From: a virus
Strand: one strand, 5' to 3'
Virus record (IMG/VR): IMGVR_UViG_3300046337_000201
Span: 1-64,000 of that record
Length of the DNA stretch: 64,000 nt
The notes below the pieces were generated by a model. It did not search any database, was not told the DNA's origin, and saw only the letters and a program-made list of their open reading frames with translations. The position numbers and the translations under genes are program-made. Below, in pieces: positions 9,915-61,390 of this stretch (positions within the stretch are counted from its first letter, which is position 1; each line of letters begins with the position of its first letter).

Positions 9915-9916
9915 AT

Positions 9917-19699: not shown

Positions 19700-19745
19700 T
19701 GTATATTTTTACATAAAAATACAAAAATAAACGTACAATATAGAT

Positions 19746-20144: not shown

Positions 20145-20150
20145 AAAATG

Positions 20151-20390
20151 CTATTTAATTATTGCTTTTACTTTGTTTAATTCCCATTTGTCTATGATAA
20201 CCTCGTTGGCTTCGGTAGACATATGCCATTTCATACCATGACCCTCTATAAAGGTTTCACTAGTCCATGTAGGGACTTCGCATCTTATGGTATTTACTAA
20301 AGTTTCTACTCCATCTACTAAAACCCTCCACTCAAATTGACTTTTTGAAGGGAAATTAGTGTTGAACCTAATATCAATTTTGTGTAGCAT
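20151..20390 (-). CDS. hypothetical protein
   Basis: 79-aa ORF inside the sulfation operon. Confidence 0.6.
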   Translation of the reverse strand: MLHKIDIRFNTNFPSKSQFEWRVLVDGVETLVNTIRCEVPTWTSETFIEGHGMKWHMSTEANEVIIDKWELNKVKAIIK

Positions 20391-20396
20391 AGTGTA

Positions 20397-21218: not shown

Positions 21219-21220
21219 GG

Positions 21221-21979
21221 TTATATTTTTTTAAAATGATGTTTACAACATGTTCCGTTGTTTTTTATTGATTGTCTTATTGCTTGATAACTAATATTAA
21301 ATTTTTTTGCAGCATCAATATATGAATTAAAAATTTCGTTTGTTTCTTCACATAATATTTTTACTCCATATATTAACTTTCTTGAATTTGATAAATTTAA
21401 CTTATGTTCTTTTGATTTTGGTTTTTTATTAATAATTTTTAAAATTTCTTTATTATGTTCAGTCATTGTTCTACCAATTTCTTTTTGTTTTTTAGAAATT
21501 TTCAATTTATGACTTTTAGATAAGCCTTTTACATAACCTAATTTTTCATAATAAATTAAATCTTCTTTTTTTACATATTTTACTAATTCATCTTTATAAA
21601 TCCATACTCTACCAAAACTAGGATTTTTATCTCCTTTAAATTTGTCTCTTAATTCTTGTAAACGATGCTCTGATAATTTTGTACCTCTAGTTGGATTTTC
21701 TATAAATTCACCAATATTAAATAATTCAATTCCATCATTTCTATATTTATTCGCCCAAAATGTTTCTCTCTCTATTAAATCATTGATATTACATTCTTCT
21801 ATAACTTCAAATAATAATGAATTAAATCCATATTTATTGTAACTATTTTGAAGATTAGGATTTGAACAATTATATTTTAGATTTGATTTATGTCTAAACC
21901 ATCTATTTTTTATATTAGAACTACTTCCAATATAAACTTTATTATTATTAATACAAGTTATTTTATAAATACCTATCAT
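21221..21979 (-). mobile_element. free-standing GIY-YIG homing endonuclease
   Basis: GIYKI...VYIGSS, NUMOD-type basic repeats. Confidence 0.85.
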
Positions 21980-22851
21980 TATTTTAAAGACTCAATTATC
22001 TCATCTAAATTAAACATTTCTCTTTCATCATTGTAAGGAAACTCTTGTAAGTCACCTGAAATGTTGTACTTGTTTAAATAAGAACTTCTTAATTGAATAT
22101 TATTTGTTTCTTTATTTGCAATGATATTAGTATGCATATCATACCCGAAAACGATAGGGCTATTAGCTATCCATAAAACTGAAGAAGGCTTGTCTAATGC
22201 TGCTGCTGCGTGTTGAGCAAAGCTATCCATTAATAACCTTTTTTCACTCATAGCTATTAAAACAAGTAAACCTCTAAAATTATCTTGAACACCTATGGTG
22301 CCATCATATTTTATTTGGTCATCTCTTCTAATATGTACAATGTTGTAAGCTTGGCTATACGTTTTGATAATTTCCAAAACGACATAAGAAGGAATATCTC
22401 TAGCCCATGAATATTTTAATTCAGATTGCCCACCTCCATTTGTTTGTAAAAGGAGAATAGGCTTATCTGAATTATATTTGTTTGCAAAGAAGTCAACTTC
22501 TCTTTTAGTAAGGAACAACTCACCTTTCTTCTTTACGATAGGCAAATTGAACATGTTACACCAAGTTTCGATTAAATGTTCTTCACATTTTATGTTTTTA
22601 GTCTCAAGATAAGGGTCATGAGCTAAAACAAGTATTTCTTGATTTTCAATGTACTCTTTATAAAAGTATTGTTGTCCTCCAAAAGCGTAAGTTCTATCTA
22701 CATTTGGATTGTTTAGATAGACTTCAGGATAGCCTGAAACAACAATTAGTTTACTAGTAGGGTACTTTTGCTTAATGGAAGCACAAACTGCGGTAGAGGC
22801 AATACACTTACCAATTCCACCATTAATTTGAAAAATAATTACATTAGGCAT
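21979..22851 (-). CDS. GT9-like (GT-B) glycosyltransferase
   Basis: GGIGK, NNPNVD, DSFAQHAAAAL. Confidence 0.75.
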   Translation of the reverse strand: MPNVIIFQINGGIGKCIASTAVCASIKQKYPTSKLIVVSGYPEVYLNNPNVDRTYAFGGQQYFYKEYIENQEILVLAHDPYLETKNIKCEEHLIETWCNMFNLPIVKKKGELFLTKREVDFFANKYNSDKPILLLQTNGGGQSELKYSWARDIPSYVVLEIIKTYSQAYNIVHIRRDDQIKYDGTIGVQDNFRGLLVLIAMSEKRLLMDSFAQHAAAALDKPSSVLWIANSPIVFGYDMHTNIIANKETNNIQLRSSYLNKYNISGDLQEFPYNDEREMFNLDEIIESLK

Positions 22852-22860
22852 ATATTATAT

Positions 22861-23595
22861 TTAATTGTTTACATATTTCCAATTGGGATAATTAATCGAA
22901 TTTAATTTTCTCCATATTTTAGTTCTATTTACATTAAAATTTTTAGAGTAATGTATTATAGAATCATAAATAATTCCTTCGATTTCTATTTTTTTATAAA
23001 GTTTAATAGCTCTTTTATCTTTTTCTTCTTGAGATTGTTTTCTTCCTATTAACTTTTCTCTAGCCTTTATTGCATTCATCCAAGAATGTAAACTAGATTT
23101 ACCAATATTACTTTCAGATATTTTTCGTTTATGTTCTTCGGATAACCTTTTTCCTTTTTTAGCATCTGAAAGTTTCTTTATGATAGCTAGATTTGACATA
23201 GCTTTCCTAGTAGCTATTTTAGTTTTTTCTCTATTATTTGGATTTTTATAATACTCAGTTAATGAAATTTTCAACTTCTCCTTTGTTTCATCAGAAATTT
23301 TACCATATCTTCCAGCACCTTTTAAATTTAACATTTCAAATCCACAATCTTTATATTGTTGTAAATATAATTCTTCATAATTATTCAATACTTCTTGAGA
23401 TACATCATTTGGTAATTCTTGTACTACATTAAACAAATGGGCTTCCCATCCATATTTGGATAAAGAAGCCCATAGTTTAACTTGACGCTTACAATTAAGT
23501 GATGAGTATTTCGATACCCTACTTTTTAAATTTATACTTTGTCCAATATAAATTTTATTAGTAGGAGATTGTATTTTATAAATACCTGAGTTCAT
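22861..23595 (-). mobile_element. free-standing GIY-YIG homing endonuclease with NUMOD3
   Basis: SGIYKI...IYIGQS; SEEHKRKISES. Confidence 0.85.
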
Positions 23596-23618
23596 TTATA
23601 TTTAGTTAATTTATAAAA

Positions 23619-23626
23619 CAAATTTA
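23619..23626 (-). promoter_or_regulatory. TAAATTTG -7 promoter box
   Basis: Intergenic, upstream of ATG 23595. Confidence 0.45.
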
Positions 23627-23667
23627 ATTAAAAATGTGATATAAAATACTAAATGTAAACATATATT

Positions 23668-23994
23668 TTACATATATTGTACTTCTACAAAATCAGAAAC
23701 CGCTACACCTAATTTTGCCGCAGCAATGGTTAATAAAATAGTGTCATCAGTTCCCCAAGTAGCTAAATCCTCTGAAGTTAATTCTAAATCAGAAGAACCT
23801 AATTCTTGTAAACGAGTTTTTTTACCTTTTACTTCTAAGTTACCAAATACAACTTGGAAGCGATTTTTAGCTGCTCCTGCTATATAAGGTCGACCAATAA
23901 CACTCATATGGTTAGCTTCGATTACTTCAGGTTGGCTAAAAGGGTTAGTTTGTTTTTGAAACTTAGCAGTTGGATTAATTTTTCCTACTAACAT
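23668..23994 (-). CDS. fibre-associated small protein
   Basis: WGTDD...AAAKLGV; directly downstream of the fibre genes. Confidence 0.55.
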   Translation of the reverse strand: MLVGKINPTAKFQKQTNPFSQPEVIEANHMSVIGRPYIAGAAKNRFQVVFGNLEVKGKKTRLQELGSSDLELTSEDLATWGTDDTILLTIAAAKLGVAVSDFVEVQYM

Positions 23995-33227: not shown

Positions 33228-34034
33228 TTAATAGCCTACTGCGTAGACATCTTTTATTTTATATTCTTCTATATAATCTCTAATGAACTTATTGATTATA
33301 TCATATCTTTTTTTATTTTGCTCACTTGGGTAACCTATAAAAGTATCTCCAAACGCAGCATAAGCTTCTCTAATTGGATAACCTAATCCTAAGTATATAG
33401 TTAATCCATTCAAATCAGCCTCAGTTTCATTCGTTATATCACTATTTAAGTAAAAGTGACTAAACTCGTGTAACAATATTGCCATTCTCATTGGAATGGT
33501 ATAAGGTAAGAAAGACTCTTGAGATACTTGTATTCTACCATTTTTAGTAGAAATACGAGCAGGAGTAGCCATTTTCTCGCCACTTTTATTATTCTTAATG
33601 TATGGTAGGTATTCTATTTTAAAGCTCCCTACACTACTTACATAGTCTTTTGGGGCACTAATCCAACCCGCATTGTAACAAAACTTTTGAGCAAATGCTA
33701 CAAAGTTGCGTACCATTGAATTATCCATCTTTGTTTTACCCAAAGTAATATCTAACTCTTCTTTCTTAATATCTACTACTTGAAAGCTATTATCTTGCCC
33801 CTTTTGTAAATTGCCATTAGCCTTATTGTAAACCGATAAACTTGTTGAATATGGAGAAAGAGGCATTCTTACGAAAAGTTCTTCTTGTCCATTAATAGTT
33901 TTTTCTCTATCGGTGAAATAAGTATTAGCTTGGTTTTTATCGAACACTTTCACTACAATCACTTGAGGTGTTTGAGTTTTAATCACGATTTTAACCATGA
34001 TTGGTTCGTAAAGGGTAAGTAGCTTATAATTCAT
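33228..34034 (-). CDS. HExxH zinc metallopeptidase, candidate virion maturation protease
   Basis: ILLHEFSH followed by ETEAD (third ligand). Confidence 0.75.
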   Translation of the reverse strand: MNYKLLTLYEPIMVKIVIKTQTPQVIVVKVFDKNQANTYFTDREKTINGQEELFVRMPLSPYSTSLSVYNKANGNLQKGQDNSFQVVDIKKEELDITLGKTKMDNSMVRNFVAFAQKFCYNAGWISAPKDYVSSVGSFKIEYLPYIKNNKSGEKMATPARISTKNGRIQVSQESFLPYTIPMRMAILLHEFSHFYLNSDITNETEADLNGLTIYLGLGYPIREAYAAFGDTFIGYPSEQNKKRYDIINKFIRDYIEEYKIKDVYAVGY

Positions 34035-37303: not shown

Positions 37304-37999
37304 TTATCTAGTTGCAGGTCTGATAATCTTTGGACTACCATATTGCTTAGAAACTGGATTTCCACCCAATCCACGAGCAATGTTGATTGTATCAGAAGGG
37401 TAGAATTGGAACTGAACTGTTGTTGCAGCATAAAGTTGGAAAGTCAACTTTGTGAAACCATCGATTCTGAATGGTTGCTTCAATTCAATTACACCGCTTT
37501 GTTGTTGATACGGGTCAATTGTTGGTGTCAAGATTTTAGTAGCTTGGTTACCATTCGCATCTAATGTGCTTAATGTTAATGGAGCTAAAACTTGAGACGT
37601 TGTACCTGCTACTGAAGAAATCAAAGTACTACCAATTGTGAATGGAGATACACTTGATTGATTCAATAAGTTGTAGTAAGTTACGTTTGATAAACCTGAA
37701 CTAATTGTTACGTTAGATACAGTTAAAGAACCACCACTGAAACCAGTGTTGTTCAAATAAATGTAAGCACCGAATACATCGATAGTTACTGCTGCGTTAG
37801 ACGCATTAGAAACTGTTACGATATAAGGTTGAGAACGTAAAACTGGAGCTGCTGCCATTGGAGCTGCTTCGCCATCTGCACTGAAGAAATTTTCTCCACC
37901 TGCAAAATACATGTCATCATCTACGAATCCATCTACACCGATGAATTGCTCATTTACTTGGCGATTAGCCATTTGTAAATACTTTTGAATACTACTCAT
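37304..37999 (-). CDS. putative major capsid protein (single jelly-roll-like) with acidic propeptide
   Basis: Beta-strand-rich, 231 aa; C-ending codons (TTC, ATC, AAC) enriched against genome background; upstream promoter box and own terminator; next to packaging ATPase. Confidence 0.6.
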   Translation of the reverse strand: MSSIQKYLQMANRQVNEQFIGVDGFVDDDMYFAGGENFFSADGEAAPMAAAPVLRSQPYIVTVSNASNAAVTIDVFGAYIYLNNTGFSGGSLTVSNVTISSGLSNVTYYNLLNQSSVSPFTIGSTLISSVAGTTSQVLAPLTLSTLDANGNQATKILTPTIDPYQQQSGVIELKQPFRIDGFTKLTFQLYAATTVQFQFYPSDTINIARGLGGNPVSKQYGSPKIIRPATR

Positions 38000-38385: not shown

Positions 38386-39210
38386 TTATGAGAAATAAGA
38401 GTGAATCATCCTTTCTTTTATCTCTTTTATAGCACTTTCTTCAGTGTGTTTTTTCTTATTTCCTTCTTTTTGAACAAGATATGGTTTCAATATCTGCTTG
38501 TAATTTTCATTGATATATTGATTCAAAGCTTCCTCCCTTACATCATCAGGTATATTACCTCTAATCTTAGATTCATCCATATCTACATATAAGAAGTATC
38601 TAATATTACCCCTACCATATTCATTGTTTACCATTATTTCAGCGATACGCATAAACTCAAACTTATCAGGGAATTTTTGAGCATGTCTTTCCACACTCTC
38701 ATTATTCTTATGAAATCTTAATTGATTTAGATTACCCCATATCTTAGTATTAATACGACCTAATGATTGATAAGATAAAATAATATCCAATCCAATATGT
38801 CTATTGGTACAAATAGCACCAATTAAATCACCAGGCATGTGGTCATAGATAAACTTATTAATATCCTCAATTAGTAATAATCCATTCTGAAATCTATTGA
38901 GTACATAGAATAATGCTTGAGCCCATTCATCTAGGGTCATTCTAGCTCCATTTGGATGAAATGGTCTAACTCTACGAATTTGTACGCTTGGATGAACAGT
39001 GAATAGGGGTACATCCTTTAATGATATTGCTTGAACTCCATAAGTACCCGCACCATATTCATCATTCACATCCATTATTAAGCACTTCCTTCCTTTAATA
39101 CCTTGATAGTAGTCACCTTGAACGTATTGGTTCATCATTATCATATGTTGATATGACTTACCAACTCCTTTTTTACCACAAGCTGCCATTAACATTGGTT
39201 CTCTACCCAT
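38386..39210 (-). CDS. A32/P9-like FtsK-HerA genome packaging ATPase
   Basis: Walker A GKKGVGKS, Walker B LLLIED, NRHIGLDIILSYQ (Arg-His...Gln); 274 aa, no nuclease domain. Confidence 0.85.
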   Translation of the reverse strand: MGREPMLMAACGKKGVGKSYQHMIMMNQYVQGDYYQGIKGRKCLIMDVNDEYGAGTYGVQAISLKDVPLFTVHPSVQIRRVRPFHPNGARMTLDEWAQALFYVLNRFQNGLLLIEDINKFIYDHMPGDLIGAICTNRHIGLDIILSYQSLGRINTKIWGNLNQLRFHKNNESVERHAQKFPDKFEFMRIAEIMVNNEYGRGNIRYFLYVDMDESKIRGNIPDDVREEALNQYINENYKQILKPYLVQKEGNKKKHTEESAIKEIKERMIHSYFS

Positions 39211-49339: not shown

Positions 49340-50956
49340 TTATTTTTTATTTCTTTCTTTCCACTTAGCAGTTTGAGCACCAATAATTCTTAATGCAGAT
49401 TCGTGAGCTTCTTTTTTGTTATAAGTTTTACCATAGTCTTTTTGAACTTTTGGAGCTACTTTTTTACGTTCTAATAGGCTTTTTTCAACTGCTTTTACCT
49501 TGTCAGCAAATTTTACTTCGCCACCCATAGCGTAAAATCCTTCTTTTTCATATCTTGACTTTGACATATTACCCATAGAATTGTATTCACCACTTTCCCA
49601 TAGCTTTTTCATTTTCATATCAGCGGCTCTCATAGACTTAAATTCGCCTAATAACTCTCTTTTGTTTCCATCTTTAGAAACCCAAACTATGTATGGAACT
49701 ACTTCGCCACCTCTAGCATATTCATCTATTCTTTTGCCAGTTTCTAGGTCTATTTGAGCTCTTTTGTGTGTTTTTAAATTTTCTACAACTATTTGATTAT
49801 CCCAAAACATATCAGTTGTCACCTTGTCTCCTATTCTTAAACCATGTTCCATCATGCCGCCATGAGCCATTTTAGGAAAAATTCTAAATTGATTTTCAAA
49901 TTTATTTTTGTCAGCTAATAATCTCATACCCGATTCTTTGCCATCTTCATCTAAATAGGAATACTCATATTTTGTATCAGTTATTTTAGTGATTTTAGCC
50001 TCTCCACCTTCAAACATACCTTCATCGCCTACATTTAATTCACCACCTTCTTCAAAAATGCCAAAAAGTTTTCTTTCTTTTGGTCTCTCTTCAAATTCTT
50101 CTTCATCTTTTGTAACTATCTTCTCTCCATCATTAAATAGCATTTTACCTTGACTTTCGCCTATGTATCTAAATTCTTTGCCGCTATTGTCTTTGTACCA
50201 ACGACCCGCAGTCATACCGCCATGAGCATATTTATGCTTAATCAATGCTATCCATAATGCTTGAATACCTCTTGTTTCAAATATTATATCATCATTATCA
50301 TTATCTACTAAAAAGTATAATAATTCTTTGTCAATATTTATTTTAATTAAAGGTTTCATACCTCCAATTGCAGATGTACGATTGAAATATCTATATATCT
50401 TTTCTCCTTCTTTTAATTTAATGTCTTTTACCAAATTTTGGTCATAATCATTTAATTTATATAAATATCCATCAGCCATTTTGCCACTGCTAGTTTTCCA
50501 ACCAAAATTACCTACATAATCTTCTTCGGTATGTTGAACTTTTTGAAGTATGTCTTTTTCTATACTACCACTTGGTCTACTTAACCTCCACTCATCATTT
50601 TGGTCATAAAATTTAACATTTCCACCTTTAGCAAATCTTTCTCCTCTCGATACTCCTTCCCATACTTCTTTTGCAGGTTTTGGAGTAAAATATATATCTC
50701 TTTCAAGTCCTAATCCAAATGGAGGCACTTTAATTGTTTGAAACTCGGAACGACTTACGCTACCCATTTCAGGTTCAAATAAGTCTACTATTGCCCAAAT
50801 ATAATCAGGGTCTTCAGGGTCTGAGTTCAATAAATACCAAACACCATTTGAATATGGATTAAAAATTTTGGCAACAACCATCTGCTTGTCCAAATCAGCT
50901 CCATACTTGTATTGTTCAAACAATTTTTTATCAATCTCTTTTGTAAATAGACGCAT
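49340..50956 (-). CDS. modular protein with N-terminal DUF2958-like domain and repeated [MFY]xxGG motifs
   Basis: KIFNP...WY...EMGSVS...LERD.YF; six GG motifs. Confidence 0.7.
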   Translation of the reverse strand: MRLFTKEIDKKLFEQYKYGADLDKQMVVAKIFNPYSNGVWYLLNSDPEDPDYIWAIVDLFEPEMGSVSRSEFQTIKVPPFGLGLERDIYFTPKPAKEVWEGVSRGERFAKGGNVKFYDQNDEWRLSRPSGSIEKDILQKVQHTEEDYVGNFGWKTSSGKMADGYLYKLNDYDQNLVKDIKLKEGEKIYRYFNRTSAIGGMKPLIKINIDKELLYFLVDNDNDDIIFETRGIQALWIALIKHKYAHGGMTAGRWYKDNSGKEFRYIGESQGKMLFNDGEKIVTKDEEEFEERPKERKLFGIFEEGGELNVGDEGMFEGGEAKITKITDTKYEYSYLDEDGKESGMRLLADKNKFENQFRIFPKMAHGGMMEHGLRIGDKVTTDMFWDNQIVVENLKTHKRAQIDLETGKRIDEYARGGEVVPYIVWVSKDGNKRELLGEFKSMRAADMKMKKLWESGEYNSMGNMSKSRYEKEGFYAMGGEVKFADKVKAVEKSLLERKKVAPKVQKDYGKTYNKKEAHESALRIIGAQTAKWKERNKK

Positions 50957-50962
50957 TTTTTA

Positions 50963-51511
50963 TTAATTTTTATATTCAAATGAATGATTTCTAACTGATT
51001 TTTGTCTCTTTTTTAATACATTAACAATATCACTTTTTGTACATGAAAGATAATTTGAGGCTTCTGATATTGATTTAAACTCCTTAACAAATTCTGAACT
51101 ACCTTTTTTATACATTAAAACCGCCTTTTCATTATTAATTTGTGGTATTTTTAAATTTGCTTTATAAGCATGAATTTGATTTTCAGATTGATTACACCAT
51201 TCTAAATTACTTACGGTATTGTCTGTTTTAATTCCATTTATATGATTTATTTGATTTTTATTTTCAAATACTTCTAAAAATGCAAAACCTACCAAACGAT
51301 GTACTTTAAAAAACTTACCCTTACCTTCTTTATACAAATCTAAAACTAAATAACCATCACTATCTAAACTTGGATTTCTTAATTTTTCAGGCAAAACTCT
51401 ATTGCCACCACGAAAATGTGCTATTAACTTTTCACAGCTTTTCACTCTACCAAGATTACTTACTTGATAGAGTCCTTCATAACCAATAATATCTTTCCAA
51501 ATCTCTGACAT
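50963..51511 (-). mobile_element. NUMOD4-HNH homing endonuclease
   Basis: EIWKDI.GYEGLYQVSNLGRV; HRLV; NHING.K.DN...NLEW. Confidence 0.9.
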
Positions 51512-51514
51512 ATT

Positions 51515-51715
51515 TTATTCTTGTGTTCTGTGAATTTCTCCGCCCATTGCCATTTTCTTAGTTTGATATTCTAAGTAATGAGTAATATCGCTTAAATCGG
51601 TACTTGCTCTTTCAATTTTAGCTACTACCCAAGCTTCAATATCACTTTTAGTAGATACGATATGAGATAATTCATCAGCATGATGCTTAACTGCTTTAAT
51701 TTGACTTAAAACCAT
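51515..51715 (-). CDS. helical domain ending in MAMGG; possibly frameshift continuation of 51733..52665
   Basis: Its frame stays open upstream into the end of 51733..52665. Confidence 0.6.
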   Translation of the reverse strand: MVLSQIKAVKHHADELSHIVSTKSDIEAWVVAKIERASTDLSDITHYLEYQTKKMAMGGEIHRTQE

Positions 51716-51732
51716 TTCACTATTGCTTTCTA

Positions 51733-52665
51733 CTACTTCTTTTTCAGATACACCCCACCATCAGCCATTTTTTGTTCTTTTACACTATCCCATTTTTTAA
51801 TTAATTTCAAATGTAAGTCTCTTCTTTTTTTACCATTTTCAGAAGATAAGTGACCTTCTTTTTCATGTAATTCTAAAATTCTTTTAGCTTCTTTTAAATC
51901 TGCTTCATTACCGAAATGTTTTGCCAAAAGAACAACATTTTCAGAATGATAGTTATTATCTTCATTATCTAAATATTCTTTTTCAATCTCTTCTAATTCA
52001 TCTTTAGTCATTCCACCTTTAGCCATTTTATTAGAAAATTTCCAAAACTTTAATTCTCCCTCTCCCAACACTCTTTCTCCTCTATTGTTTCTTATTTCCC
52101 AAATATGAGGATTTTTATTGTATAAAGATTTTACTACATAAACACCATAATCCGCTTCTTTTGATTCAATTCTATCTCCAATTTTTATATTATCCTTTGT
52201 AATTTCTCCACCATCACCCATGTAGCCACCATGCTCTAATTTAGGGTATTTTTGAGCCTTTTTTGGTTGTTTTACATCAACACGATTTGCTCTATATTCA
52301 TAATAAACATGACCTTTTGAACTCTTTTTATCGCTAAATTGGTTTCCTTTTAATCCTTTTGATACTCTACGACCAACGTGCAATGCTCCCTCTTCTGCAT
52401 CCTTTTTCAAGTCTACACCCGCACCCTTATATATACCATATTTCTTTTTAGCAACTAATGCTTGAAGCTTAGATAATGTAGTAGCAGTACCTTTTGTAGT
52501 ACTTACTTTACGAGGTTTAGCTCCTCCTTTCATTGATTCAAGCTCATTTTGAGCCTTTTCTAATTGAGCTTTTAGTTTAGATTTAATAGTAGCATTCAAT
52601 CCTTTACTAGTCAAAGCCCCCTTTAATTTTTTAATATCACTCTTTAATTTTATTATAGTAGCCAT
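51733..52665 (-). CDS. basic modular protein with [ML]xxGG motifs
   Basis: LEHGG, MGDGG, MAKGG, MADGG. Confidence 0.7.
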   Translation of the reverse strand: MATIIKLKSDIKKLKGALTSKGLNATIKSKLKAQLEKAQNELESMKGGAKPRKVSTTKGTATTLSKLQALVAKKKYGIYKGAGVDLKKDAEEGALHVGRRVSKGLKGNQFSDKKSSKGHVYYEYRANRVDVKQPKKAQKYPKLEHGGYMGDGGEITKDNIKIGDRIESKEADYGVYVVKSLYNKNPHIWEIRNNRGERVLGEGELKFWKFSNKMAKGGMTKDELEEIEKEYLDNEDNNYHSENVVLLAKHFGNEADLKEAKRILELHEKEGHLSSENGKKRRDLHLKLIKKWDSVKEQKMADGGVYLKKK

Positions 52666-52689
52666 GTTATTTTGTTTATATGTTTAAAA

Positions 52690-53520
52690 TTACGAATTTT
52701 TTAGTTTTAATGCTTGTAATTCCTTCTTCTTTTTTTCCAATTCATCTTTTACCTCATCGTCAAACTCGGCTAATACTTCTAATCCATCTATTTCCTTTTG
52801 TAATCTCTTTATTTCTTTATCCTCTTTAGATATGGTTTTCTTAGGTAATTTTGCAATAAAACCACTATTTGAAGCTTGTACTACATTAATAGATTTTTTA
52901 GGAATGTATTTATTATAATAGTTACTTCTAACCCCATCTAGGAATTTTTCTTTTTCCATTGTAACCTTCAATCCATCGCTTATGTACTCAACGAGTAAGG
53001 TTTCAGTAGATATACTTTTAATTTCAAATACTAAATCAGTTCCATTTACTATAAATTGCTCTCCTACTTCAAATGGAAAAATAACTTTCTCTTCTTTTAT
53101 TTCATCCAATACTTTTACCCATTGACCACCATTAAAATAATCTTTTGCGTTTTCTATCTTTTCATTATATGATTTGTCAATTTTATCTACATTGGAATAC
53201 CAAGATATTTTTGCCTCTCCCTTATCCAAATTAATATCAGATATGGTATATATATTATTTTTTGAACTTTTATCTAATGGTACTATAAATTTAGTGCCTT
53301 CTTCAAATGGTAAATTGCTTTCTACAACTTGTTCAACTATTGGCTTTTCAACAATTTTAGTTTTCTCAGCAGTACCAAATCTTTTAGAAAGGAAATCCAA
53401 CGCAGATATAGTAGCATCAAACAACGCAGGATTTTCAGTTGAAATATTATTTAACTCACTATCATTTGATACGACAAAATTATCAATCAAATCTTGTGCT
53501 TGTTCTTTATTTAAAGGCAT
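52690..53520 (-). CDS. hypothetical protein with duplicated small beta-barrel domains
   Basis: PFEEGTKFIV / PFEVGEQFIV. Confidence 0.65.
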   Translation of the reverse strand: MPLNKEQAQDLIDNFVVSNDSELNNISTENPALFDATISALDFLSKRFGTAEKTKIVEKPIVEQVVESNLPFEEGTKFIVPLDKSSKNNIYTISDINLDKGEAKISWYSNVDKIDKSYNEKIENAKDYFNGGQWVKVLDEIKEEKVIFPFEVGEQFIVNGTDLVFEIKSISTETLLVEYISDGLKVTMEKEKFLDGVRSNYYNKYIPKKSINVVQASNSGFIAKLPKKTISKEDKEIKRLQKEIDGLEVLAEFDDEVKDELEKKKKELQALKLKNS

Positions 53521-53521
53521 A

Positions 53522-53860
53522 TTAATCTATTTTATCATATTGTGTTTCATCATCTATATTTAATGGCAATGATTCGCTTAAAAAAGATGCTCTTTCAAAA
53601 ATATCTTTAAACTTATGGTCAATAAAGTTAATTTGTGCATCTTGACCAATAGTTGCTATTCTAAATTCGTAGTCTCTTTCCCCCGCTAATACTGACTCTT
53701 TCTCGTATTTAATAACGATGGTATTAGGTAATCCTTGATTTTGCATGATAGTAACATTAGATATTGAACCATACCTTTTATCTACAAAATCCTTTAGGTT
53801 CTTTAATAATGTCATTGCAGCCATCAATTGTTTTGTGGTTATTTGTGGTTTTACTCTCAT
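53522..53860 (-). CDS. hypothetical protein
   Basis: 112-aa ORF. Confidence 0.65.
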   Translation of the reverse strand: MRVKPQITTKQLMAAMTLLKNLKDFVDKRYGSISNVTIMQNQGLPNTIVIKYEKESVLAGERDYEFRIATIGQDAQINFIDHKFKDIFERASFLSESLPLNIDDETQYDKID

Positions 53861-53861
53861 A

Positions 53862-55493
53862 TTAAAAGTTTTGTAATTCGTTTAAGACATTTTTCAGTAG
53901 TTCGTTTCTAACTTCTTGTCTATCCTCTTCAGTTTCGAAGAATATTCCCTCAGCATAGGTTGTAATCTCCAAAGTGATGTTGGTGATATACTTTTTAAAA
54001 GTAAATCTACCTTGTTTATCTATTATAGAATATCCAAATTCATTTAAGCTTTCATCGGTTCCTTGCAAAATTTTTGCTCCTAACTCTTTGAAAAAAACAC
54101 CTAATGTCTGCCCTTGATAAATCAAATTTACATCTGCTTTAGATACAATGTCATCTAATTCCAATACAAAATTGTATACTTCATTGCTAATAGCTGACAA
54201 ATCCTTTCTTAGCTCATTGGAGTTTACAATATCAATTTTATTCTTTAAGATAGTTGCACTTAGTCTCATCCACCAATTAAAAAATGGATTTATATTTATA
54301 TCAATAAGCACATCTGCATCATTATATTTATTTCTTATATAATTTTTTACCCCATATAAAAAAGAATCAAGTCTATTCTTGATAACCATATCATGAAAAA
54401 ACAACATAGCTTCAGGTAATACCTCTTTACTCTTAAAAAGACCTAATTTAACGTACTCTTGATATTTATTTCTATACCTCTCAATTCCCTCAAAATATTC
54501 ATTTTGGCTAAAATTTGGTTGACCATAAATATCTTCTTTTTCAATAAAAGATGCAGTAACTTCTTTTTCAACAGCCCACATTGCTAAATATTCATATACT
54601 TTCCTAAAACTATCTGAAGAAATCATAAAACCTAATGACTTATCAAATTCTTGACCAAAATCTTTAGCTATGATAGGTTGTATTAATAAGCTATTTTTAA
54701 AATTTTTATCCTTAGCCACTTTGTACATTGGCAATTCTACTCCATTTGGTGTATTTTGTTTTAATGTCCATTTGGTATTCAACTTAACAAATCTAGTCAT
54801 GTAGATTCTAGTCATTACCCCTATTGATTCAAGATAATCTGCAACCATCATCGCAGGTATGTGTCTAATAGCGAATTGAGTGTCACCACTTAAACTAGTA
54901 AAATAGAATAAGCTATATATTTCCACATACTTTACCTTACCCTTGTTTCTTTTGTGTGTTAAATACACTTTTCTGTTTCTAGTTGCATATTTTAACTTAG
55001 CCCCTTTTACTCCATCTTCAATTGCAGTTTCTCCTTTTTGTCTAATAACGCAATCAAAAATACCATTATCATCTTCGTAAATGTATATTTTCTCCCCATT
55101 ATCAACCTTTTGAACCACCAAATTAGGTGGCACTACTCCACTAGGAAGCTCAAAGTCTTTAAATTTATCGGGATATTCATTTGCCAATTTTTGAGAAAAA
55201 TACTCAGGAACTTTATACATACCCATAGAAGCCAATGAGAAATCAAATATTCCCATAGGTTTATCGGTAGCAACTAATTTGCTTTTTTCGGTTTTACCAC
55301 CTAAATTCAATTTGAATGGTGCTGAATCAAATAGTAAATTTATTTTACTAAATGAGTTATCATTATAATCGTTTAAATATTGTTGAAGATTGAAAAAAGA
55401 AGATTGCTCTTTTATAGAACTATAAAATTGCTCCCAATCGTCAATAGCCCAACATAATATAGGATAACCTTCAAATCTGTTTTGAAAAGCCAT
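53862..55493 (-). CDS. large hypothetical protein, probable partner of the AAA+ ATPase
   Basis: 543 aa, translationally coupled to the AAA gene; no clear MIDAS motif. Confidence 0.55.
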   Translation of the reverse strand: MAFQNRFEGYPILCWAIDDWEQFYSSIKEQSSFFNLQQYLNDYNDNSFSKINLLFDSAPFKLNLGGKTEKSKLVATDKPMGIFDFSLASMGMYKVPEYFSQKLANEYPDKFKDFELPSGVVPPNLVVQKVDNGEKIYIYEDDNGIFDCVIRQKGETAIEDGVKGAKLKYATRNRKVYLTHKRNKGKVKYVEIYSLFYFTSLSGDTQFAIRHIPAMMVADYLESIGVMTRIYMTRFVKLNTKWTLKQNTPNGVELPMYKVAKDKNFKNSLLIQPIIAKDFGQEFDKSLGFMISSDSFRKVYEYLAMWAVEKEVTASFIEKEDIYGQPNFSQNEYFEGIERYRNKYQEYVKLGLFKSKEVLPEAMLFFHDMVIKNRLDSFLYGVKNYIRNKYNDADVLIDININPFFNWWMRLSATILKNKIDIVNSNELRKDLSAISNEVYNFVLELDDIVSKADVNLIYQGQTLGVFFKELGAKILQGTDESLNEFGYSIIDKQGRFTFKKYITNITLEITTYAEGIFFETEEDRQEVRNELLKNVLNELQNF

Positions 55494-56887
55494 TATATAG
55501 TTTTTTGAGTTGCTTTATAATCCGATATTACCTTTTGTACTTCCATCAATTCGGCATCAGTGTCAAAATTAGGAGCACTTGAGTTATATGGCATTTTATT
55601 CTTTTCTTCAACTATCGCTTTAAATCTAGGGAAATCAACATCATTCAAAATAGCTTCTTTTGTTGCTGGTTTAAACAATCCAAAGAAATTTTCCATTGAT
55701 TCAACAATAGTTTTAGGATTAGTTATCGCATCATTACTAATTTTACCTCTTTGTTGTGCTACGTTATCTACAACTTCACGATATGCTACATATGTAGATT
55801 TAACATTACCCATTAAACGTAATGACACAAAAGCTTGTCCACTTGCTCTATTTTTCTCAATAGATTGTCTAACCTTAACTAAGAATAACCAAATGAATGA
55901 GAATCCTTTCATGATTGTTTCAGCTTCAAATTGATAATCCACAAATACTCTATATGTAGAACCAATGAATCTATCTTGTAAAGACAAATCTTGCTTAAAG
56001 TTAGCCTCGTAATCAGGGTCAATTGTGTTTAATGGTACGTTACCCGTTGCTATAACATACAAGTTACCTAATTCTAAAACCTTGTTTTTACCATTTCTAA
56101 TGGTAGGAGGTTTTGCAATACCCGTTGCAGGGTCTACTTTATAATCTTTTACTTTAGCTAAAGCTTCATTTAGAATACCCGCAGTGTTTGGGTCAATTTT
56201 AGGTAACTCATCCAATATAAGTACGCAACCATCTACTTTTTTCTCTGAACCATCTGCATTTACAATAACATTTGACCAAGCCATTGATAATTTACCTTCT
56301 TGGTAGCCATCAATAGTTTGACCTCCTAAAATATCCAATGGAGAAGTAAATTGGTTACAATTCAATGTTATTTTCTCCCATCCAAGCATATCTGCAATTT
56401 CTTCTGCAAGGTAGGTTTTACCAGTACCTGCACCGCCATACAAATAACTATTGTTTCTAGCTATAATATCACTCAAAATCAATTGAGTCAAAGGTCTAGC
56501 CAATGTTTTAGGACTAACATCCTTAGTTGTTTGAATACCTAATAGTTTACCAATTGTAAGCTTAACATTTCTTGTTGAATTTAACAAAGCAATTAATGAA
56601 GGGCTTAAATCACTTTCGGTAATTTTTCTTTTAGAAAGTTCTTCATTTACCGCTTTTCGTACTTCACTCATGCTTACGTTGGCACCCCCACTTTTCAAGG
56701 CACTTTGTAAAGCATTAAGCACTGCCATTAATTCGGCATCGCCTTCACCACTTATTGCAGCAGTTTGTACTTGTGCACTACCCACTGATTGAAGTCTAGC
56801 TAAGTTTTTTTGTGCTAATTCTCTATTAGCATCAGTAGTGTTAGGGTCGTTTATTATTCCTTCTAAAAGTTCAATTTGAGTTGCCAT
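55493..56887 (-). CDS. MoxR/CbbQ/CobS-type AAA+ ATPase
   Basis: GGAGTGKT, LILDE, IATGN, LQDRF. Confidence 0.85.
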   Translation of the reverse strand: MATQIELLEGIINDPNTTDANRELAQKNLARLQSVGSAQVQTAAISGEGDAELMAVLNALQSALKSGGANVSMSEVRKAVNEELSKRKITESDLSPSLIALLNSTRNVKLTIGKLLGIQTTKDVSPKTLARPLTQLILSDIIARNNSYLYGGAGTGKTYLAEEIADMLGWEKITLNCNQFTSPLDILGGQTIDGYQEGKLSMAWSNVIVNADGSEKKVDGCVLILDELPKIDPNTAGILNEALAKVKDYKVDPATGIAKPPTIRNGKNKVLELGNLYVIATGNVPLNTIDPDYEANFKQDLSLQDRFIGSTYRVFVDYQFEAETIMKGFSFIWLFLVKVRQSIEKNRASGQAFVSLRLMGNVKSTYVAYREVVDNVAQQRGKISNDAITNPKTIVESMENFFGLFKPATKEAILNDVDFPRFKAIVEEKNKMPYNSSAPNFDTDAELMEVQKVISDYKATQKTI

Positions 56888-56888
56888 A

Positions 56889-57992
56889 TTATTTTTTTGA
56901 ATTTATTATTTGTCGACTTAGTTCTCTAGCGGTAATGTTTGTTGGTAGATTTAAGTCTTTTTTTATTTTTGTAAAATTATTTGATAATAACCATAATTCC
57001 CCACTTTCTTCATTCCTAAAGATACTTAGTAACTCACTAGGGTTATATTCCCCATCGGTAGATTTAGAAATTTCTTGAATAGTACTAGAAAATTCCATTT
57101 TTTCTAGTTGGCTAGAAGCTTTAGTTTCTCCCTCGCTAGGTTCTCCTTTATCTTCACTTGGTTTATCACTTGGCTTACCTTCTCCCTCTCCTTCGCCTTC
57201 CTCACCCTCTCCTTCTCCTTGACCTTGACCTTCTCCCTCTCCTTCTCCTTCCTCACCTTCACCTTCACCTTCTCCCTCTCCTTCCTCGCCTTTTTCACCT
57301 TTCTCTCCTTTTTCACCTTTCTCACCTTTCTCACCTTTTTCACCTTTTTCTCCTTCTTCGCCTTCACCTTTTTCACTCTCTTGACCTTTTTCAGTGTTAC
57401 CACCTTCTTCTCCACCTTGATTAGTGATTGATTTAGGTATAAATAAGAATACTTTTTTACTTGGCTCCTCTTCGAAAGTTACATCTTCATATCTTTTTAA
57501 TAATACTTCACATTTTAATAGTTGTGGAATATCTTCGCCACTCCAATCTATTGTAAATACGTTATCAGGTAATGGTTGAGGCATTGTGTCCATGCTTACT
57601 TCAAAATCAAAAATCTTTACTTGGCTCTTATCATCCATAACTACAAATAGACTAATGGTTCTAAATCCATTTTGTTTTGCACTCCCAATAGCCAATAATG
57701 GCAATATATTAGGATTTTGTTGTGGATTATTACCTAAGTTACCTCCACCACTAGACCCTTGCTCTCCACTACAAACACTTAATAAGTTTTCAAAATAGTT
57801 CCATGCTTCTAAAGAATCATTAGTTTTTAGCTCATTTTGTCTATCATCTATACTTCCACTAAATACTTTAATGTTTCTATTTTTATTTTGACCAATAAGC
57901 TCAAGGTAAAAGTCAGTATCATTACAATTATAGGAATATCTAACAATATCCCCATCCATAGTTTTCTTAAAATTATCTCTATTTAGTTTCAT
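56889..57992 (-). CDS. protein with Gly/Glu/Lys low-complexity tract
   Basis: (GEK)n and (GE)n runs. Confidence 0.7.
   Translation of the reverse strand: MKLNRDNFKKTMDGDIVRYSYNCNDTDFYLELIGQNKNRNIKVFSGSIDDRQNELKTNDSLEAWNYFENLLSVCSGEQGSSGGGNLGNNPQQNPNILPLLAIGSAKQNGFRTISLFVVMDDKSQVKIFDFEVSMDTMPQPLPDNVFTIDWSGEDIPQLLKCEVLLKRYEDVTFEEEPSKKVFLFIPKSITNQGGEEGGNTEKGQESEKGEGEEGEKGEKGEKGEKGEKGEKGEKGEEGEGEGEGEGEEGEGEGEGQGQGEGEGEEGEGEGEGKPSDKPSEDKGEPSEGETKASSQLEKMEFSSTIQEISKSTDGEYNPSELLSIFRNEESGELWLLSNNFTKIKKDLNLPTNITARELSRQIINSKK
57180..57420. repeat. low-complexity GEK/GE coding repeat
   Basis: C/T-rich 6-9-bp units on the + strand; boundaries approximate. Confidence 0.8.
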
Positions 57993-57995
57993 ATT

Positions 57996-60185
57996 TTAAA
58001 TTTTACCTCCTTTTTCTAATAGGAATGATTTTAAAGAAGCAAATAACAACATACCTCTATTTGGGTCAGCAATTTTACATTGGTTAGCATCAAATATGAT
58101 ATAAGCCTCAGTTTTATGTGCATTTGAACTTTTATCAGGAACATTTGGATTGCTCTCGTAAAAATTAATGCCATCGTATATGTGCGTTTGAGCTATCTTT
58201 TGTAACATTTTAGGGTTATTCCTTATATATACCCATGTTTCTAATGCAGGAGTGCTATTAGATAAGAATAAAGGATTAACTTCTAATTGCTCCATTGTGA
58301 GACCAGTTGTTAGGTACATGTAATCAAAAAATTCTTTTGACTTAATGAGTTCAGTTCCAAAATGTGTTAAATCTAATGGATTCCTAATATTTAAAAAGAA
58401 AGGGATAACATATCCATTACCACCACCTTGTAAATCTGAAAAGAATTGTGAGTACTCTCTATTCACCGCAAAATATGCAGCAGGGAATTTATCAAAAATG
58501 AAATAAGAAAACTCTTGACCCGTCCCATGCCAAACCACTCTAGGTTCATAATTAGATGTCAATACCTTTGAACATTCCAATTCAATTGCATCAGTGTCTT
58601 TATATATGAATGAAAGCTCCCAATCACCAAACCACTCTTTGAATTGTGGAGTTCTAATAATTTCGTTTAGCCCAATGCTTAAATCACTTGTTTCACCATT
58701 TGGTGTAAAAAAGTCAGTTGCCTCCGAAGTAGGAGCATATACTCCCTGATATTCGTGTTTTATTTCAATAAATGATTGCTCAAAAAGGTCATCAAAAAAT
58801 TGGTCAGTAGCCATTTTCTCTTCAATACCTTTAAAATTTAGCTCATTTATCTTCTTTTGCTTTTCATCAATAAGTTGAGTAATCTCTATTTTTTGTTCAA
58901 ATTCAATTGGACTAACTAATGTCCTCATAAATAGCAATTGACCTAAATCTTTTTTAACTTGGTCTATTTCACTAAGTGTTGTGCTATTAGGTGTTATTGG
59001 TGTTGTACCACTATCTGCTTTTGGAACTAAAATAGGTTTGTCAAATATTTCCTCTAAATTGTAATATTCTTCAATAAATAAATGATAATTTTTAAATAAA
59101 GTTTCAAATGATATTGTAGTAGTTACTTGTGATTTTTCATTAATATTAAAAAACTCTATTTCTTTTTCTAATATATTAATATTAACAATTTTTAATAGAT
59201 ATTCAATTTTTTGAGATTTTGCAACTGCTTTAATCACATCGCCTATTACAAAAAACTCGCTTCTATATAATATAGTAGAATTTTTTGTATCTACATAAAT
59301 AATATCCCACTTAGAATTTTCTTGTTTATTAGCTTTTTCATTAACACCATCAATTATAATACCTTCTAAAGTAATAAGAGATATGCCATAATTCTCACCT
59401 CCACTAGCACTTTTACTATTTGCTTTAATGATTTGAATATCGTACTTTTTACTTTCTATTAATTCTTTCCAATAATCATCATATAGACTCCTAGTAAATC
59501 CTCTATCAATACCATTTATAGACCAAAAAGTTGGTTTTTTTGTAATAGATTCAACATTCATTTCATTGTAGATGCTACCATCTGATTTTATTGTTGTTTT
59601 AACAACATCCCCTTTTTTAACTTTTTGTAACTCCTCTAATATATCCATATTTGAAACTTGAGGCTGATTTACAAATATTTGTTTAATCTTGCCATTTGCA
59701 ACGTCATTTTCAAATGTTTTTTTATTTAAAAATAGTAAACTACCGCTTCTAGCTTTTTTTAATGCATATTGTTGTACACTTTTAATAGTATCATCAATAG
59801 TCCACGTTTCTCCTGATGACATATCCTCAAAAGTATCGCCAACTTTAAACTTAAATGAATTATCTATTGTTGTAGTTGTTGGTGAAGATGCAAATATTCT
59901 ACCTAATAGACGATTAATACCATCCATTAATTCTCTTTCTCTTTGAATATCAGTTACTTTAACATTAAAATAAAAATATACAAAATCAGTACGAGAGTCA
60001 TTTAATTTCCTATTAATTACAATACTATATTCTCCTAACTCATTAAAAATATCTTGAGCATCATCATTATTTATTAAATTTCTAGGAATAAAAAAATATC
60101 TTTCAGTAGTATTACCAATTTGATATAATTCTAAAGTAAAATTTTTATTTGGGAATGGTATGCTAACTCTTATTTTGTATGCCAT
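57996..60185 (-). CDS. polyvalent-type protein with C-terminal ADP-ribosyltransferase-like domain
   Basis: RTPQFKEWFGDW, EPRVVWHGT, FLNIRNP, YDG; ends LEKGG. Confidence 0.7.
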   Translation of the reverse strand: MAYKIRVSIPFPNKNFTLELYQIGNTTERYFFIPRNLINNDDAQDIFNELGEYSIVINRKLNDSRTDFVYFYFNVKVTDIQRERELMDGINRLLGRIFASSPTTTTIDNSFKFKVGDTFEDMSSGETWTIDDTIKSVQQYALKKARSGSLLFLNKKTFENDVANGKIKQIFVNQPQVSNMDILEELQKVKKGDVVKTTIKSDGSIYNEMNVESITKKPTFWSINGIDRGFTRSLYDDYWKELIESKKYDIQIIKANSKSASGGENYGISLITLEGIIIDGVNEKANKQENSKWDIIYVDTKNSTILYRSEFFVIGDVIKAVAKSQKIEYLLKIVNINILEKEIEFFNINEKSQVTTTISFETLFKNYHLFIEEYYNLEEIFDKPILVPKADSGTTPITPNSTTLSEIDQVKKDLGQLLFMRTLVSPIEFEQKIEITQLIDEKQKKINELNFKGIEEKMATDQFFDDLFEQSFIEIKHEYQGVYAPTSEATDFFTPNGETSDLSIGLNEIIRTPQFKEWFGDWELSFIYKDTDAIELECSKVLTSNYEPRVVWHGTGQEFSYFIFDKFPAAYFAVNREYSQFFSDLQGGGNGYVIPFFLNIRNPLDLTHFGTELIKSKEFFDYMYLTTGLTMEQLEVNPLFLSNSTPALETWVYIRNNPKMLQKIAQTHIYDGINFYESNPNVPDKSSNAHKTEAYIIFDANQCKIADPNRGMLLFASLKSFLLEKGGKI

Positions 60186-60187
60186 TA

Positions 60188-61390
60188 TTATGCGTTTATA
60201 TATTTGTCAACAAGCTTTTGATTACCCAATAGTAAAGCCATTTGAATCTTGTGTGGCAATTCATCAAAAACAATATTGTGTGTATTTTTTAAATAATTCT
60301 TATAATTACTTTTAGTAATATGAAAATCTTGATTACCATTTTCCAATTGAAATAATGTAAATGGTGGTACTACTTTATCAATAATTTGAATCATTCCCCC
60401 TTTTTCTAGTTTATGACCATATAATTTTTTGAAAGCTTCACTTGGAGGTAAATGATGGTGTTTAACTCCATATTCTTTTTGACTAGGTATTTTATAGGTA
60501 CCATCGTCTCCTATTTCAAACCCTTCATAGAATTTACTATTTGTTACTCCACCCTCTTGCATTTTATGTTGACAACCACATGAGGAAACTATTTCGCTAT
60601 CCTTCATTGTTTTTCCACCATACTTGTATGACTTTCCACTAACCATTATGTGTTTAGGCACATCACCTCCTTTTGCAAAAGAGACACCCCCACCACCTTC
60701 ATTGATACGAGAAAGAATTTCTCTATTAGTTAGCATTTCACCTTCAAACTCCCTTTTTTCATTATCACTAACTGCGTTACGAGTAATTACAACCTCACCT
60801 CCCTCCATTTCTAGTGGACTATTGGTTGACTTGTTTATTGCTTTTATTCCACCCTCACTATGTCTTTTCCCAACTAGCAAACCACCAACACTACCTGATT
60901 TATGAATCATTTCATTTTTTATCTTTGCATTGTCAGGATTAACTTCTCCACCTTTTTCCATTTTATTTGTTTTACTATGGTATTCCAAATAATCTTTTAA
61001 TTCATTTAAAGTTGTTGTTTCTTTATAATATTCTCCATCATAACTTTGGGCAATCCATGTTCCCTTAGTATATTGTTTATTAATATTATATAACATACCA
61101 TTTATTATTGTAGTATAACCTCCACCACCTTTATTATATATTTTTTTATATATTAAACCACCTTTTTCAAAGGTTGATTCCATTTTAGCTAATTTCTTAT
61201 AATAATCTATATTTTCATCTAAATGTTGTAAAGCAATTGTTCTTTGCACATCCTTAGAATTAGAATGCTCACTTTCTACCTTCATACCTTTCCTTAATTG
61301 CGTACTTGCATAAAGTAAAGACACACCCTTTTCCTTAGCTATTTTAGAAATATTCTTAGACGACTTTAAAGGTTTTAAGGTATTTTTCAT
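60188..61390 (-). CDS. modular protein with DUF5661-like N-terminus and GG motifs
   Basis: GMKVESEH...IALQHLDE..DYY; FEKGG, MEKGG, FAKGG, MQEGG, LEKGG; GKRHSEGG/EMEGGE. Confidence 0.7.
   Translation of the reverse strand: MKNTLKPLKSSKNISKIAKEKGVSLLYASTQLRKGMKVESEHSNSKDVQRTIALQHLDENIDYYKKLAKMESTFEKGGLIYKKIYNKGGGGYTTIINGMLYNINKQYTKGTWIAQSYDGEYYKETTTLNELKDYLEYHSKTNKMEKGGEVNPDNAKIKNEMIHKSGSVGGLLVGKRHSEGGIKAINKSTNSPLEMEGGEVVITRNAVSDNEKREFEGEMLTNREILSRINEGGGGVSFAKGGDVPKHIMVSGKSYKYGGKTMKDSEIVSSCGCQHKMQEGGVTNSKFYEGFEIGDDGTYKIPSQKEYGVKHHHLPPSEAFKKLYGHKLEKGGMIQIIDKVVPPFTLFQLENGNQDFHITKSNYKNYLKNTHNIVFDELPHKIQMALLLGNQKLVDKYINA

Follow-up and report, generated by a model that had tools for sequence, protein, structure and literature searches.

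A recurrent Gly-Gly motif in five minus-strand genes

The stretch of viral DNA analysed here, referred to below as the window, comprises 64,000 nucleotides and is the first 64 kb of the 75,160-bp IMG/VR record IMGVR_UViG_3300046337_000201, which is classed as linear with an estimated completeness of 67%. The window has a G+C content of ~31%, and its minus strand carries nearly all of the genes. Between positions 49,340 and 61,390, a short motif, [MFYL]-[AEQG]-x-G-G, recurs in a block of modular proteins. We analysed this motif in the context of the full genome (75 kb, 119 open reading frames (ORFs)) and of related viral records.

Five genes, all on the minus strand, bear the motif. ORF 49340 (49340-50956) encodes a modular protein of 538 amino acids (aa), composed of DUF2958 followed by six small modules. 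Its six motifs start at residues 108, 243, 301, 363, 413 and 475, and correspond to FAKGG (50621-50635), YAHGG (50216-50230), FEEGG (50042-50056), MAHGG (49856-49870), YARGG (49706-49720) and YAMGG (49520-49534). The 66-aa product of ORF 51515 (51515-51715) consists of a single module and ends with MAMGG (51539-51553) plus seven residues. ORF 51733 (51733-52665) encodes a 310-aa modular protein with four motifs, LEHGG (52225-52239), MGDGG (52207-52221), MAKGG (52012-52026) and MADGG (51754-51768), and stops six residues past the last of them. ORF 57996 (57996-60185) encodes a 729-aa protein with a C-terminal ART-PolyVal domain, and its chain terminates in LEKGGKI, directly followed by the stop codon (motif at 58005-58019). 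Finally, ORF 60188 (60188-61390) encodes a 400-aa modular protein composed of DUF5661 and further modules, with five motifs: FEKGG (61157-61171), MEKGG (60947-60961), FAKGG (60665-60679), MQEGG (60548-60562) and LEKGG (60395-60409).

A preliminary description of the window, made from the sequence alone, had reported about 17 copies of the motif. We recovered all 17 on the minus strand in the ORFs named there, with six copies in ORF 49340, one in ORF 51515, four in ORF 51733, one at the C-terminus of ORF 57996 and five in ORF 60188. One further match, the 18th (LQGGG, residue 585 of ORF 57996), falls within the ART-PolyVal domain and is probably due to chance. The 18 matches in these five proteins (2043 aa) compare with a mean of 0.64 and a maximum of 5 after shuffling of the residues (2000 shuffles). 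On the other hand, the remaining 114 ORFs of the genome (21,298 aa) contain seven matches, as compared to 5.25 expected, which is the chance level, and the three plus-strand frames contain none. The earlier remark that the block of membrane-protein genes shows no evident motif is therefore correct.

The motif lies in flexible linkers between small domains

To locate the motif relative to the folded parts of the proteins, we modelled ORF 49340 with AlphaFold, using an alignment of 120 sequences. The model (mean predicted local distance difference test score (pLDDT) of 77) contains seven confident small domains, separated by six stretches with a pLDDT below 50 (residues 111-130, 241-246, 291-305, 360-370, 413-422 and 472-480). 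Each of these six stretches holds or abuts exactly one motif. Since the low-confidence stretches make up 13% of the protein, six chance coincidences with the motifs are very unlikely. No motif lies inside a folded core of the model, and the conserved hydrophobic residue of the motif is not packed against any domain. The preliminary description had placed the motifs between small domains, and the one-to-one match between the six motifs and the six linkers bears this out. In the model, exposed hydrophobic residues in a flexible linker thus have the look of a binding or cleavage motif, rather than that of a plain hinge.

The Pfam matches in the window and its relatives agree with this arrangement. 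None of the seven matched domains contains a motif, and five of them are followed by one that begins 1-15 residues past the domain end. The domain labels of the preliminary description are borne out. DUF2958 (residues 3-99 of ORF 49340) and DUF5661 (residues 16-72 of ORF 60188, with a motif from residue 74) were both recovered by Pfam, as was ART-PolyVal (residues 547-711 of ORF 57996, E-value of 2e-10). As for the label SH3/KOW-like, the small β domains gave weak matches to the tandem KOW domains of Spt5 in a Foldseek search. In one relative, an LPD11 domain (E-value of 4e-31) is bordered by motifs on both sides, at distances of four and three residues.

A seven-residue consensus with genome-specific flavours

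In a set of 270 distinct sites, drawn from 33 motif-rich proteins in 12 genomes, the consensus extends to seven residues, Φ-[A/E]-[K/D/N]-G-G-x-Φ, where the first Φ is Tyr, Phe or Met and the last is aliphatic. Two of the conserved positions were outside the search pattern. The residue before Gly-Gly (position +2) is Lys, Asp or Asn in 78% of the sites, and the second residue after Gly-Gly (position +6) is Val, Ile, Leu, Met, Thr or Phe in 96%. The first position is occupied by Tyr or Phe in 71% of the sites. The usage of residues at the first three positions differs between genomes (chi-square p values of 1e-5 to 6e-3), and the Glu variant, as in FEKGG, is preferred in some of them.

Two translational roles were considered and rejected. 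The context AAA ATG GCT AAA could suggest internal translation starts, which are rejected because of the prevalence of Tyr and Phe at the first position. A Shine-Dalgarno-like signal was dismissed as well, as GGA GG is depleted at the motif rather than enriched. A literature search on the motif strings returned only unrelated papers, and no description of the motif was found.

The motif marks the seams of module exchange

The preliminary description had also proposed that the motif acts as a junction for domain shuffling, and the comparison with related proteins supports this reading well. In 120 homologues of ORF 49340, we found 796 motifs, or 11 per 1000 residues. In an all-against-all BLAST comparison, 37% of the internal alignment starts and 30% of the ends lie within five residues of a motif, as compared to 12% of random positions. 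Homology breakpoints are thus concentrated at the motif.

Individual modules illustrate the same point. The module of ORF 51515 stands alone as a complete gene in the window, closes a 528-aa protein in the relative G003 and lies inside a 1634-aa protein in the relative G044, and in both relatives it is also followed by a motif. ORF 51733 ends shortly after its final motif, whereas the orthologous protein of G003 runs on beyond that motif, revealing gene fission at the seam. The module order of ORF 49340 is different in G044. ORF 60188 shares blocks of homology with G003 and G044 whose ends, at residues 71/74, 140/148 and 280/283, adjoin the motifs. These results showed that the motif marks the sites where modules are exchanged, fused and split.

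The modular proteins of the relatives reach 3272 aa with 30 motifs. The modules of at least 25 residues (248 in number) fall into 131 clusters, 105 of which are singletons, and this diversity is consistent with arms-race cargo. One module of ~283 aa with a P-loop (GGSPASGKST), bordered by motifs on both sides, was seen in three relatives (G005, 9517-10464; G016, 55710-56657; G012, 19419-20663), and is possibly a Zeta-toxin-like kinase.

The motif is restricted to one virus lineage and is retained at protein termini

We examined the lineage distribution of the motif in 31 viral records encoding a homologue of DUF2958. The window's ATPase is shared by 21 of these records, 20 of which also encode the HExxH protein of the window (ORF 33228, see below), and motif-rich ORFs are present in all 21. 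In the ten remaining records, which do not encode the ATPase, DUF2958 occurs without the motif in nine cases, a 292-kb phage and two proviruses among them. The exception is G019, a 24-kb fragment with a motif-rich ORF. Furthermore, all 12 genomes analysed whole encode motif-rich proteins, including one in which the HExxH protein is only 37% identical. We conclude that the motif is a real feature, found in linkers and confined to a single virus lineage. Its restriction to this lineage, together with the genome-specific flavours, argues for a virus-encoded reader, rather than for a general property of the domains or of the host.

The motif is also retained where no module follows. Proteins ending in an ART region were compared between three lineages, in which these regions are 26-32% identical, and their C-termini read LEKGGKI, FE[TK]GGKVN and FNKGGYVRI. 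The terminal motif of these proteins is therefore Φ-[E/N]-x-G-G-x-Φ, with all seven residues kept and followed by zero to two more. At the opposite end, some proteins of the relatives begin with a leader of 11-20 residues, which is followed by the motif. A pure spacer would not be expected to be kept at C-termini and after short leaders. These observations indicated that the motif is under selection as a peptide even without a downstream module.

In one subgroup of the relatives, adjacent genes share a longer ending, GG-x(8-13)-P[D/E/N]YL[R/K/E]MFL-x-x-stop. Three such genes are found in G005 (9517-12359), three in G012 (19419-23884) and two in G016 (53396-56657). The shared C-terminal peptide, built on the GG motif, could serve as a targeting peptide that is later removed, or could reflect a conserved DNA element at gene junctions.

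Search for a protease and a candidate zinc peptidase

Since the preliminary description had likened the motif to the sites of adenain and of the African swine fever virus (ASFV) protease, and had suggested a search for an Ulp1/adenain-like cysteine protease, we searched the genome in six frames for Peptidase_C48 and Peptidase_C5. The genome yielded no member of either family at E-values up to 10. Nor did 19 relatives, of which 15 are at least 90% complete, at E-values up to 1, although a very divergent member could escape such a search. Peptidase_C39 was absent from the genome and from four complete relatives, MPTase-PolyVal was not found in the six-frame search of the genome, and Pfam, applied to about 60 of the 119 ORFs, revealed no other protease family.

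The best candidate for a reader or cutter is ORF 33228 (33228-34034, minus strand), a core gene of the lineage that encodes a 268-aa protein resembling zinc metallopeptidases. This assignment is inferred from the sequences by elimination and co-occurrence only. The gene is present in all 12 genomes analysed whole, and its family comprises 787 clusters at 50% identity. HExxH occurs in each of 136 representatives of the family, and H189, E190, H193, E203 and D207 are invariant in 85 sequences, corresponding to the gluzincin signature HExxH…ExxxD. The structural model (pLDDT of 95) consists of an N-terminal β-sandwich and a zincin-like domain. In a VIA-align comparison, the best PDB match of the latter is the M48 peptidase BepA/YfgC (Z-score of 8.6 over 120 residues, root-mean-square deviation of 4.1 Å), followed by 3c37 (Z-score of 6.9). 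Foldseek with the same model yielded no match at an E-value of 0.001 or better, a PDB sequence search with the peptidase profile gave nothing below an E-value of 0.1, and no Pfam or PDB family matches ORF 33228 in sequence.

The arrangement of HExxH with a downstream Glu (ExxxD) is shared with the M48 gluzincins (BepA/YfgC, HtpX and Ste24), and the fold may be related to theirs. In contrast to these enzymes, the spacer between HExxH and the Glu residue is only nine residues long, an N-terminal β-sandwich domain is present and a membrane segment is absent.

Possible functions of the motif

The motif is probably a signal that is read by the virus itself. As judged from sequences and models, we tentatively favour, at somewhat less than even probability, the view that it is an exposed linker signal in cargo polyproteins, read by a virus factor and cut by a zinc peptidase. 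According to this cleavage model, a virus-encoded factor would recognize the motif in the linkers between the small modules and at their ends, and each long protein would be a polyprotein from which cleavage at every seam would release single small modules. A large number of the released modules would probably be anti-defence or host-takeover proteins, such as the ADP-ribosyltransferase. The cutter would be the core gluzincin-type zinc peptidase at 33228-34034.

Zinc peptidases of this type generally prefer a hydrophobic residue directly C-terminal to the cleaved bond, and thus the Φ at +6 or at position 0 marks a likelier cut site than the bond following Gly-Gly. If ORF 33228 is the cutter, the bond before a hydrophobic residue (G-G-x↓Φ, or that before the first Φ) would be cleaved, instead of the one directly after Gly-Gly. 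Cleavage at the motif is a plausible prediction, and the motif is perhaps the cutting site of the putative zinc protease of the virus. The complete polyprotein system, in which dozens of small, rapidly evolving anti-defence or takeover modules would be produced as a few long chains, a dedicated core zinc peptidase would cut these at a uniform seven-residue site, either in the course of assembly or once the virus has entered, the site and the enzyme would co-evolve within each genome, and the site would also serve as the swap seam, appears possible but rather doubtful.

Several observations weigh against the cleavage model. The peptidase and the motif are linked by their co-occurrence within one lineage, and this link is therefore confounded with ancestry. 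The peptidase gene is located ~15 kb away from the motif-bearing genes, amid genes for virion membrane proteins. Some motifs have only 2-7 residues after them, an unexpected arrangement if the motif merely separates modules. Codon usage at the motif is biased relative to the rest of the same proteins in the 12 genomes, with GCT used for Ala in 75% versus 44% elsewhere, and GGA for the first Gly in 9% versus 34%. Such a bias is compatible with a role in recombination, through DNA microhomology or recent copying. The enzyme may also have another substrate. The capsid candidate at 37304-37999 has an N-terminal leader that retains DGF…DDFFxA[D/N]G across the 12 genomes, and its FFxADG motif may be what the peptidase actually cleaves.

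Co-variation between the peptidase and the motif flavour was examined as well. Residues 241 and 245 of the peptidase, which neighbour N240 (nearly invariant) and R243 (invariant), rank in the top three columns for co-variation with the flavour. Only the five genomes with the strongest preference for the Glu variant have a small or polar residue at position 241, while Leu or Met at this position accompanies the Ala-type motif. The trend involves about five genomes, fails the correction for ~200 columns and has counter-examples; it is no more than a lead, and it too counts against the cleavage model.

The FFxADG sequence of the capsid leader belongs to the other, NASG-type motif of the window, and the GG motif is absent from the leader. 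We considered whether the GG motif might form part of it, given the sequence YFAGGE in this genome, and rejected the idea, as YFAGGE is not conserved and the relatives have FFxADG. The capsid leader fits two separate signals and gives no proof of an address code; the two-address code for virion compartments that the preliminary description had put forward is speculation.

If the motif is cut, the phage would pack a large and quickly changing effector arsenal in few genes, and would release it on demand. The motif further provides a simple rule for excising hundreds of uncharacterised modules from metagenomes, each of which can be tested as an anti-defence candidate. Even if it is uncut, a lineage-specific signal of seven residues, present in as many as 30 copies in one protein, suggests that some factor reads it.

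Alternative explanations

The motif could instead be an uncut docking or packaging tag, the copies of which bind a capsid or membrane protein, or a MoxR pair encoded in the same block, for multivalent loading into the particle. The pair consists of a MoxR-type AAA+ ATPase (55493-56887, minus strand; Pfam AAA_5) and its 543-aa partner (53862-55493, minus strand), and it is flanked by motif-rich genes both in the window and in the six related genomes where it was located. This placement favours a tag, as do the lineage specificity of the motif, the conserved and exposed hydrophobic pair in a flexible linker, which is typical of binding motifs, and the preservation of the full seven residues at extreme C-termini, where the chains end at or just after +6. 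However, there would be no need to repeat a tag at each seam, in up to 30 copies per protein, and the free fusion and fission of the modules suggest that they act alone. In addition, the partner of the MoxR ATPase resembles clusters of a protein atlas that bear DUF7192 and belong mostly to tailed phages, so that, as far as sequence resemblance goes, the pair is probably not confined to the motif lineage. The pair might nevertheless have a role in the motif system. Overall, we consider an uncut tag unlikely.

A second alternative dispenses with any reader of the peptide. The motif would be a passive linker cassette and a recombination seam, a simple hinge that travelled together with the modules, with the conserved DNA offering microhomology for illegitimate recombination. 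The coincidence of breakpoints with the motif, the codon bias and the recurrence within genomes of strings such as ATGGCTGATGGTGG all accord with such a cassette. Yet it would not retain an exposed aromatic or Met residue plus an aliphatic one six places on, the synonymous codons vary, and the Ala and Glu variants coexist. Moreover, the motif is held at the C-termini of proteins that are only 26-32% identical, with no recombination partner downstream, and the homologous DUF2958 proteins of other phages lack it. A passive seam thus seems quite improbable to us.

The reader might also be a host protease or a host binding protein, acting once the proteins enter the cell or are made there; this is very unlikely, considering that the DUF2958 proteins of other low-GC phage contigs are devoid of the motif and that its flavours differ between the genomes of the lineage. 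Least of all do we believe in the original proposal of an adenain/Ulp1-like cysteine protease cutting directly after Gly-Gly, as in adenovirus and ASFV. The hydrophobic residue upstream of Gly-Gly does recall the sites of adenain and of ASFV pS273R. Nevertheless, Peptidase_C48 and C5 gave no match in the six-frame searches of the genome and of the 19 relatives, the hydrophobic residue precedes the presumed cut by five positions instead of four, and the strong conservation at +6, after Gly-Gly, is not expected for clan CE. A Pup-like or ubiquitin-like role of a C-terminal Gly-Gly was considered too, and is not favoured.

Comparison with known systems

Polyproteins are processed at Gly-Gly sites by adenain (C5) and ASFV pS273R, both clan CE cysteine proteases. 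The motif resembles the adenain and ASFV sites in being a short, repeated Gly-Gly sequence with an upstream hydrophobic residue, situated between the functional units of viral proteins. Unlike the adenain site, (M/I/L)-x-G-G↓x, in which the hydrophobic residue is four positions before the cut, Φ-[A/E]-x-G-G has it five positions before, and unlike in either system the residue two after Gly-Gly is conserved and a clan-CE protease was not found. The analogy drawn in the preliminary description thus holds for how the system may work, but not for membership in the adenain/ASFV group, as no protease of that family was detected and the site is shifted by one position. To our knowledge, polyproteins with uniform cleavage sites, a hallmark of eukaryotic viruses, are almost unknown in bacterial viruses. 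The motif also differs from the double-glycine leaders processed by C39 peptidases, which are N-terminal and end in Gly-Gly, in that it is internal or C-terminal and is not accompanied by Peptidase_C39.

Among the bacteriophages, the T4 internal proteins carry capsid-targeting sequences that are cut by gp21. A related case is the processing of Dar/DdrB in phage P1, as cited by Iyer, Burroughs, Anand, de Souza and Aravind (2017; PMC5512222). The leader of 11-20 residues followed by the motif, in some proteins of the lineage, is reminiscent of such virion cargo, in which a short signal is read and cut during assembly. On the other hand, the T4 and P1 signals are single, N-terminal, different in sequence and found in tailed phages, whereas the signal described here recurs along the chain, at each seam and in up to 30 copies.

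By the description of Iyer et al. (PMC5512222), the motif proteins belong to the polyvalent proteins, as they combine many unrelated small domains in one polypeptide, including ART-PolyVal in the window and LPD11 in a relative. These authors predicted that polyvalent proteins are delivered with the invading DNA and processed into single units, and proposed an in-built MPTase domain, which is frequent but not universal in the class, as the processing enzyme. In contrast, the proteins of the window lack an MPTase, and have instead a uniform seven-residue seam motif and a separate core peptidase gene, in a lineage that is probably tailless. The text of PMC5512222 does not contain the terms 'linker', 'glycine', 'GG motif' or 'DUF2958'.

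Source genome and neighbouring genes

Gene content alone suggests that this uncultured bacterial virus lacks a tail and has an internal membrane. It encodes two small capsid-protein paralogues, a PAP2 phosphatase and three peptidoglycan hydrolases, as well as many tail-anchored membrane proteins. A putative FtsK/A32-like packaging ATPase, recognized by its Walker-type motif, is located at 38386-39210; it has no Pfam match, and no tblastn match was found among 50,697 GenBank phage records. GenBank phages likewise gave no DNA match to the motif region, and at the protein level only the DUF5661 part of ORF 60188 was matched, by cyanophages and a Vibrio phage. In PHROGs, the motif proteins had no counterpart except for two families of unknown function matching ORF 57996.

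The virus belongs to a large group of 45-102-kb records (relatives G001-G060), which have in common the FtsK/A32-like ATPase, the two small capsid paralogues, the zinc peptidase and the PAP2 phosphatase. In the window, these common genes are located at 16345-16875, 33228-34034, 37304-37999, 38386-39210 and 42196-42843. Inverted terminal repeats are assigned to five related records. The group looks like a previously undescribed set of viruses that contain a membrane but have no tail, and the virus may be a member of the jelly-roll capsid viruses.

Outside the motif-bearing genes, the window encodes a RecT recombinase (6929-7852; E-value of 2e-30). Within the cargo block, a 367-aa protein (56889-57992) contains a long acidic low-complexity tract of the GEKGEK/GEGEGE type. 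There are four probable free-standing homing endonuclease genes, at 50963-51511, 22861-23595, 41492-42196 and 44421-45155. One is of the HNH/NUMOD4 type, one combines GIY-YIG with NUMOD3, and two have only NUMOD3 matches in Pfam and were named GIY-YIG-like on the basis of their N-terminal sequences. The HNH/NUMOD4 gene (50963-51511, minus strand; Pfam NUMOD4 and HNH_3) is located exactly between two motif-bearing genes.

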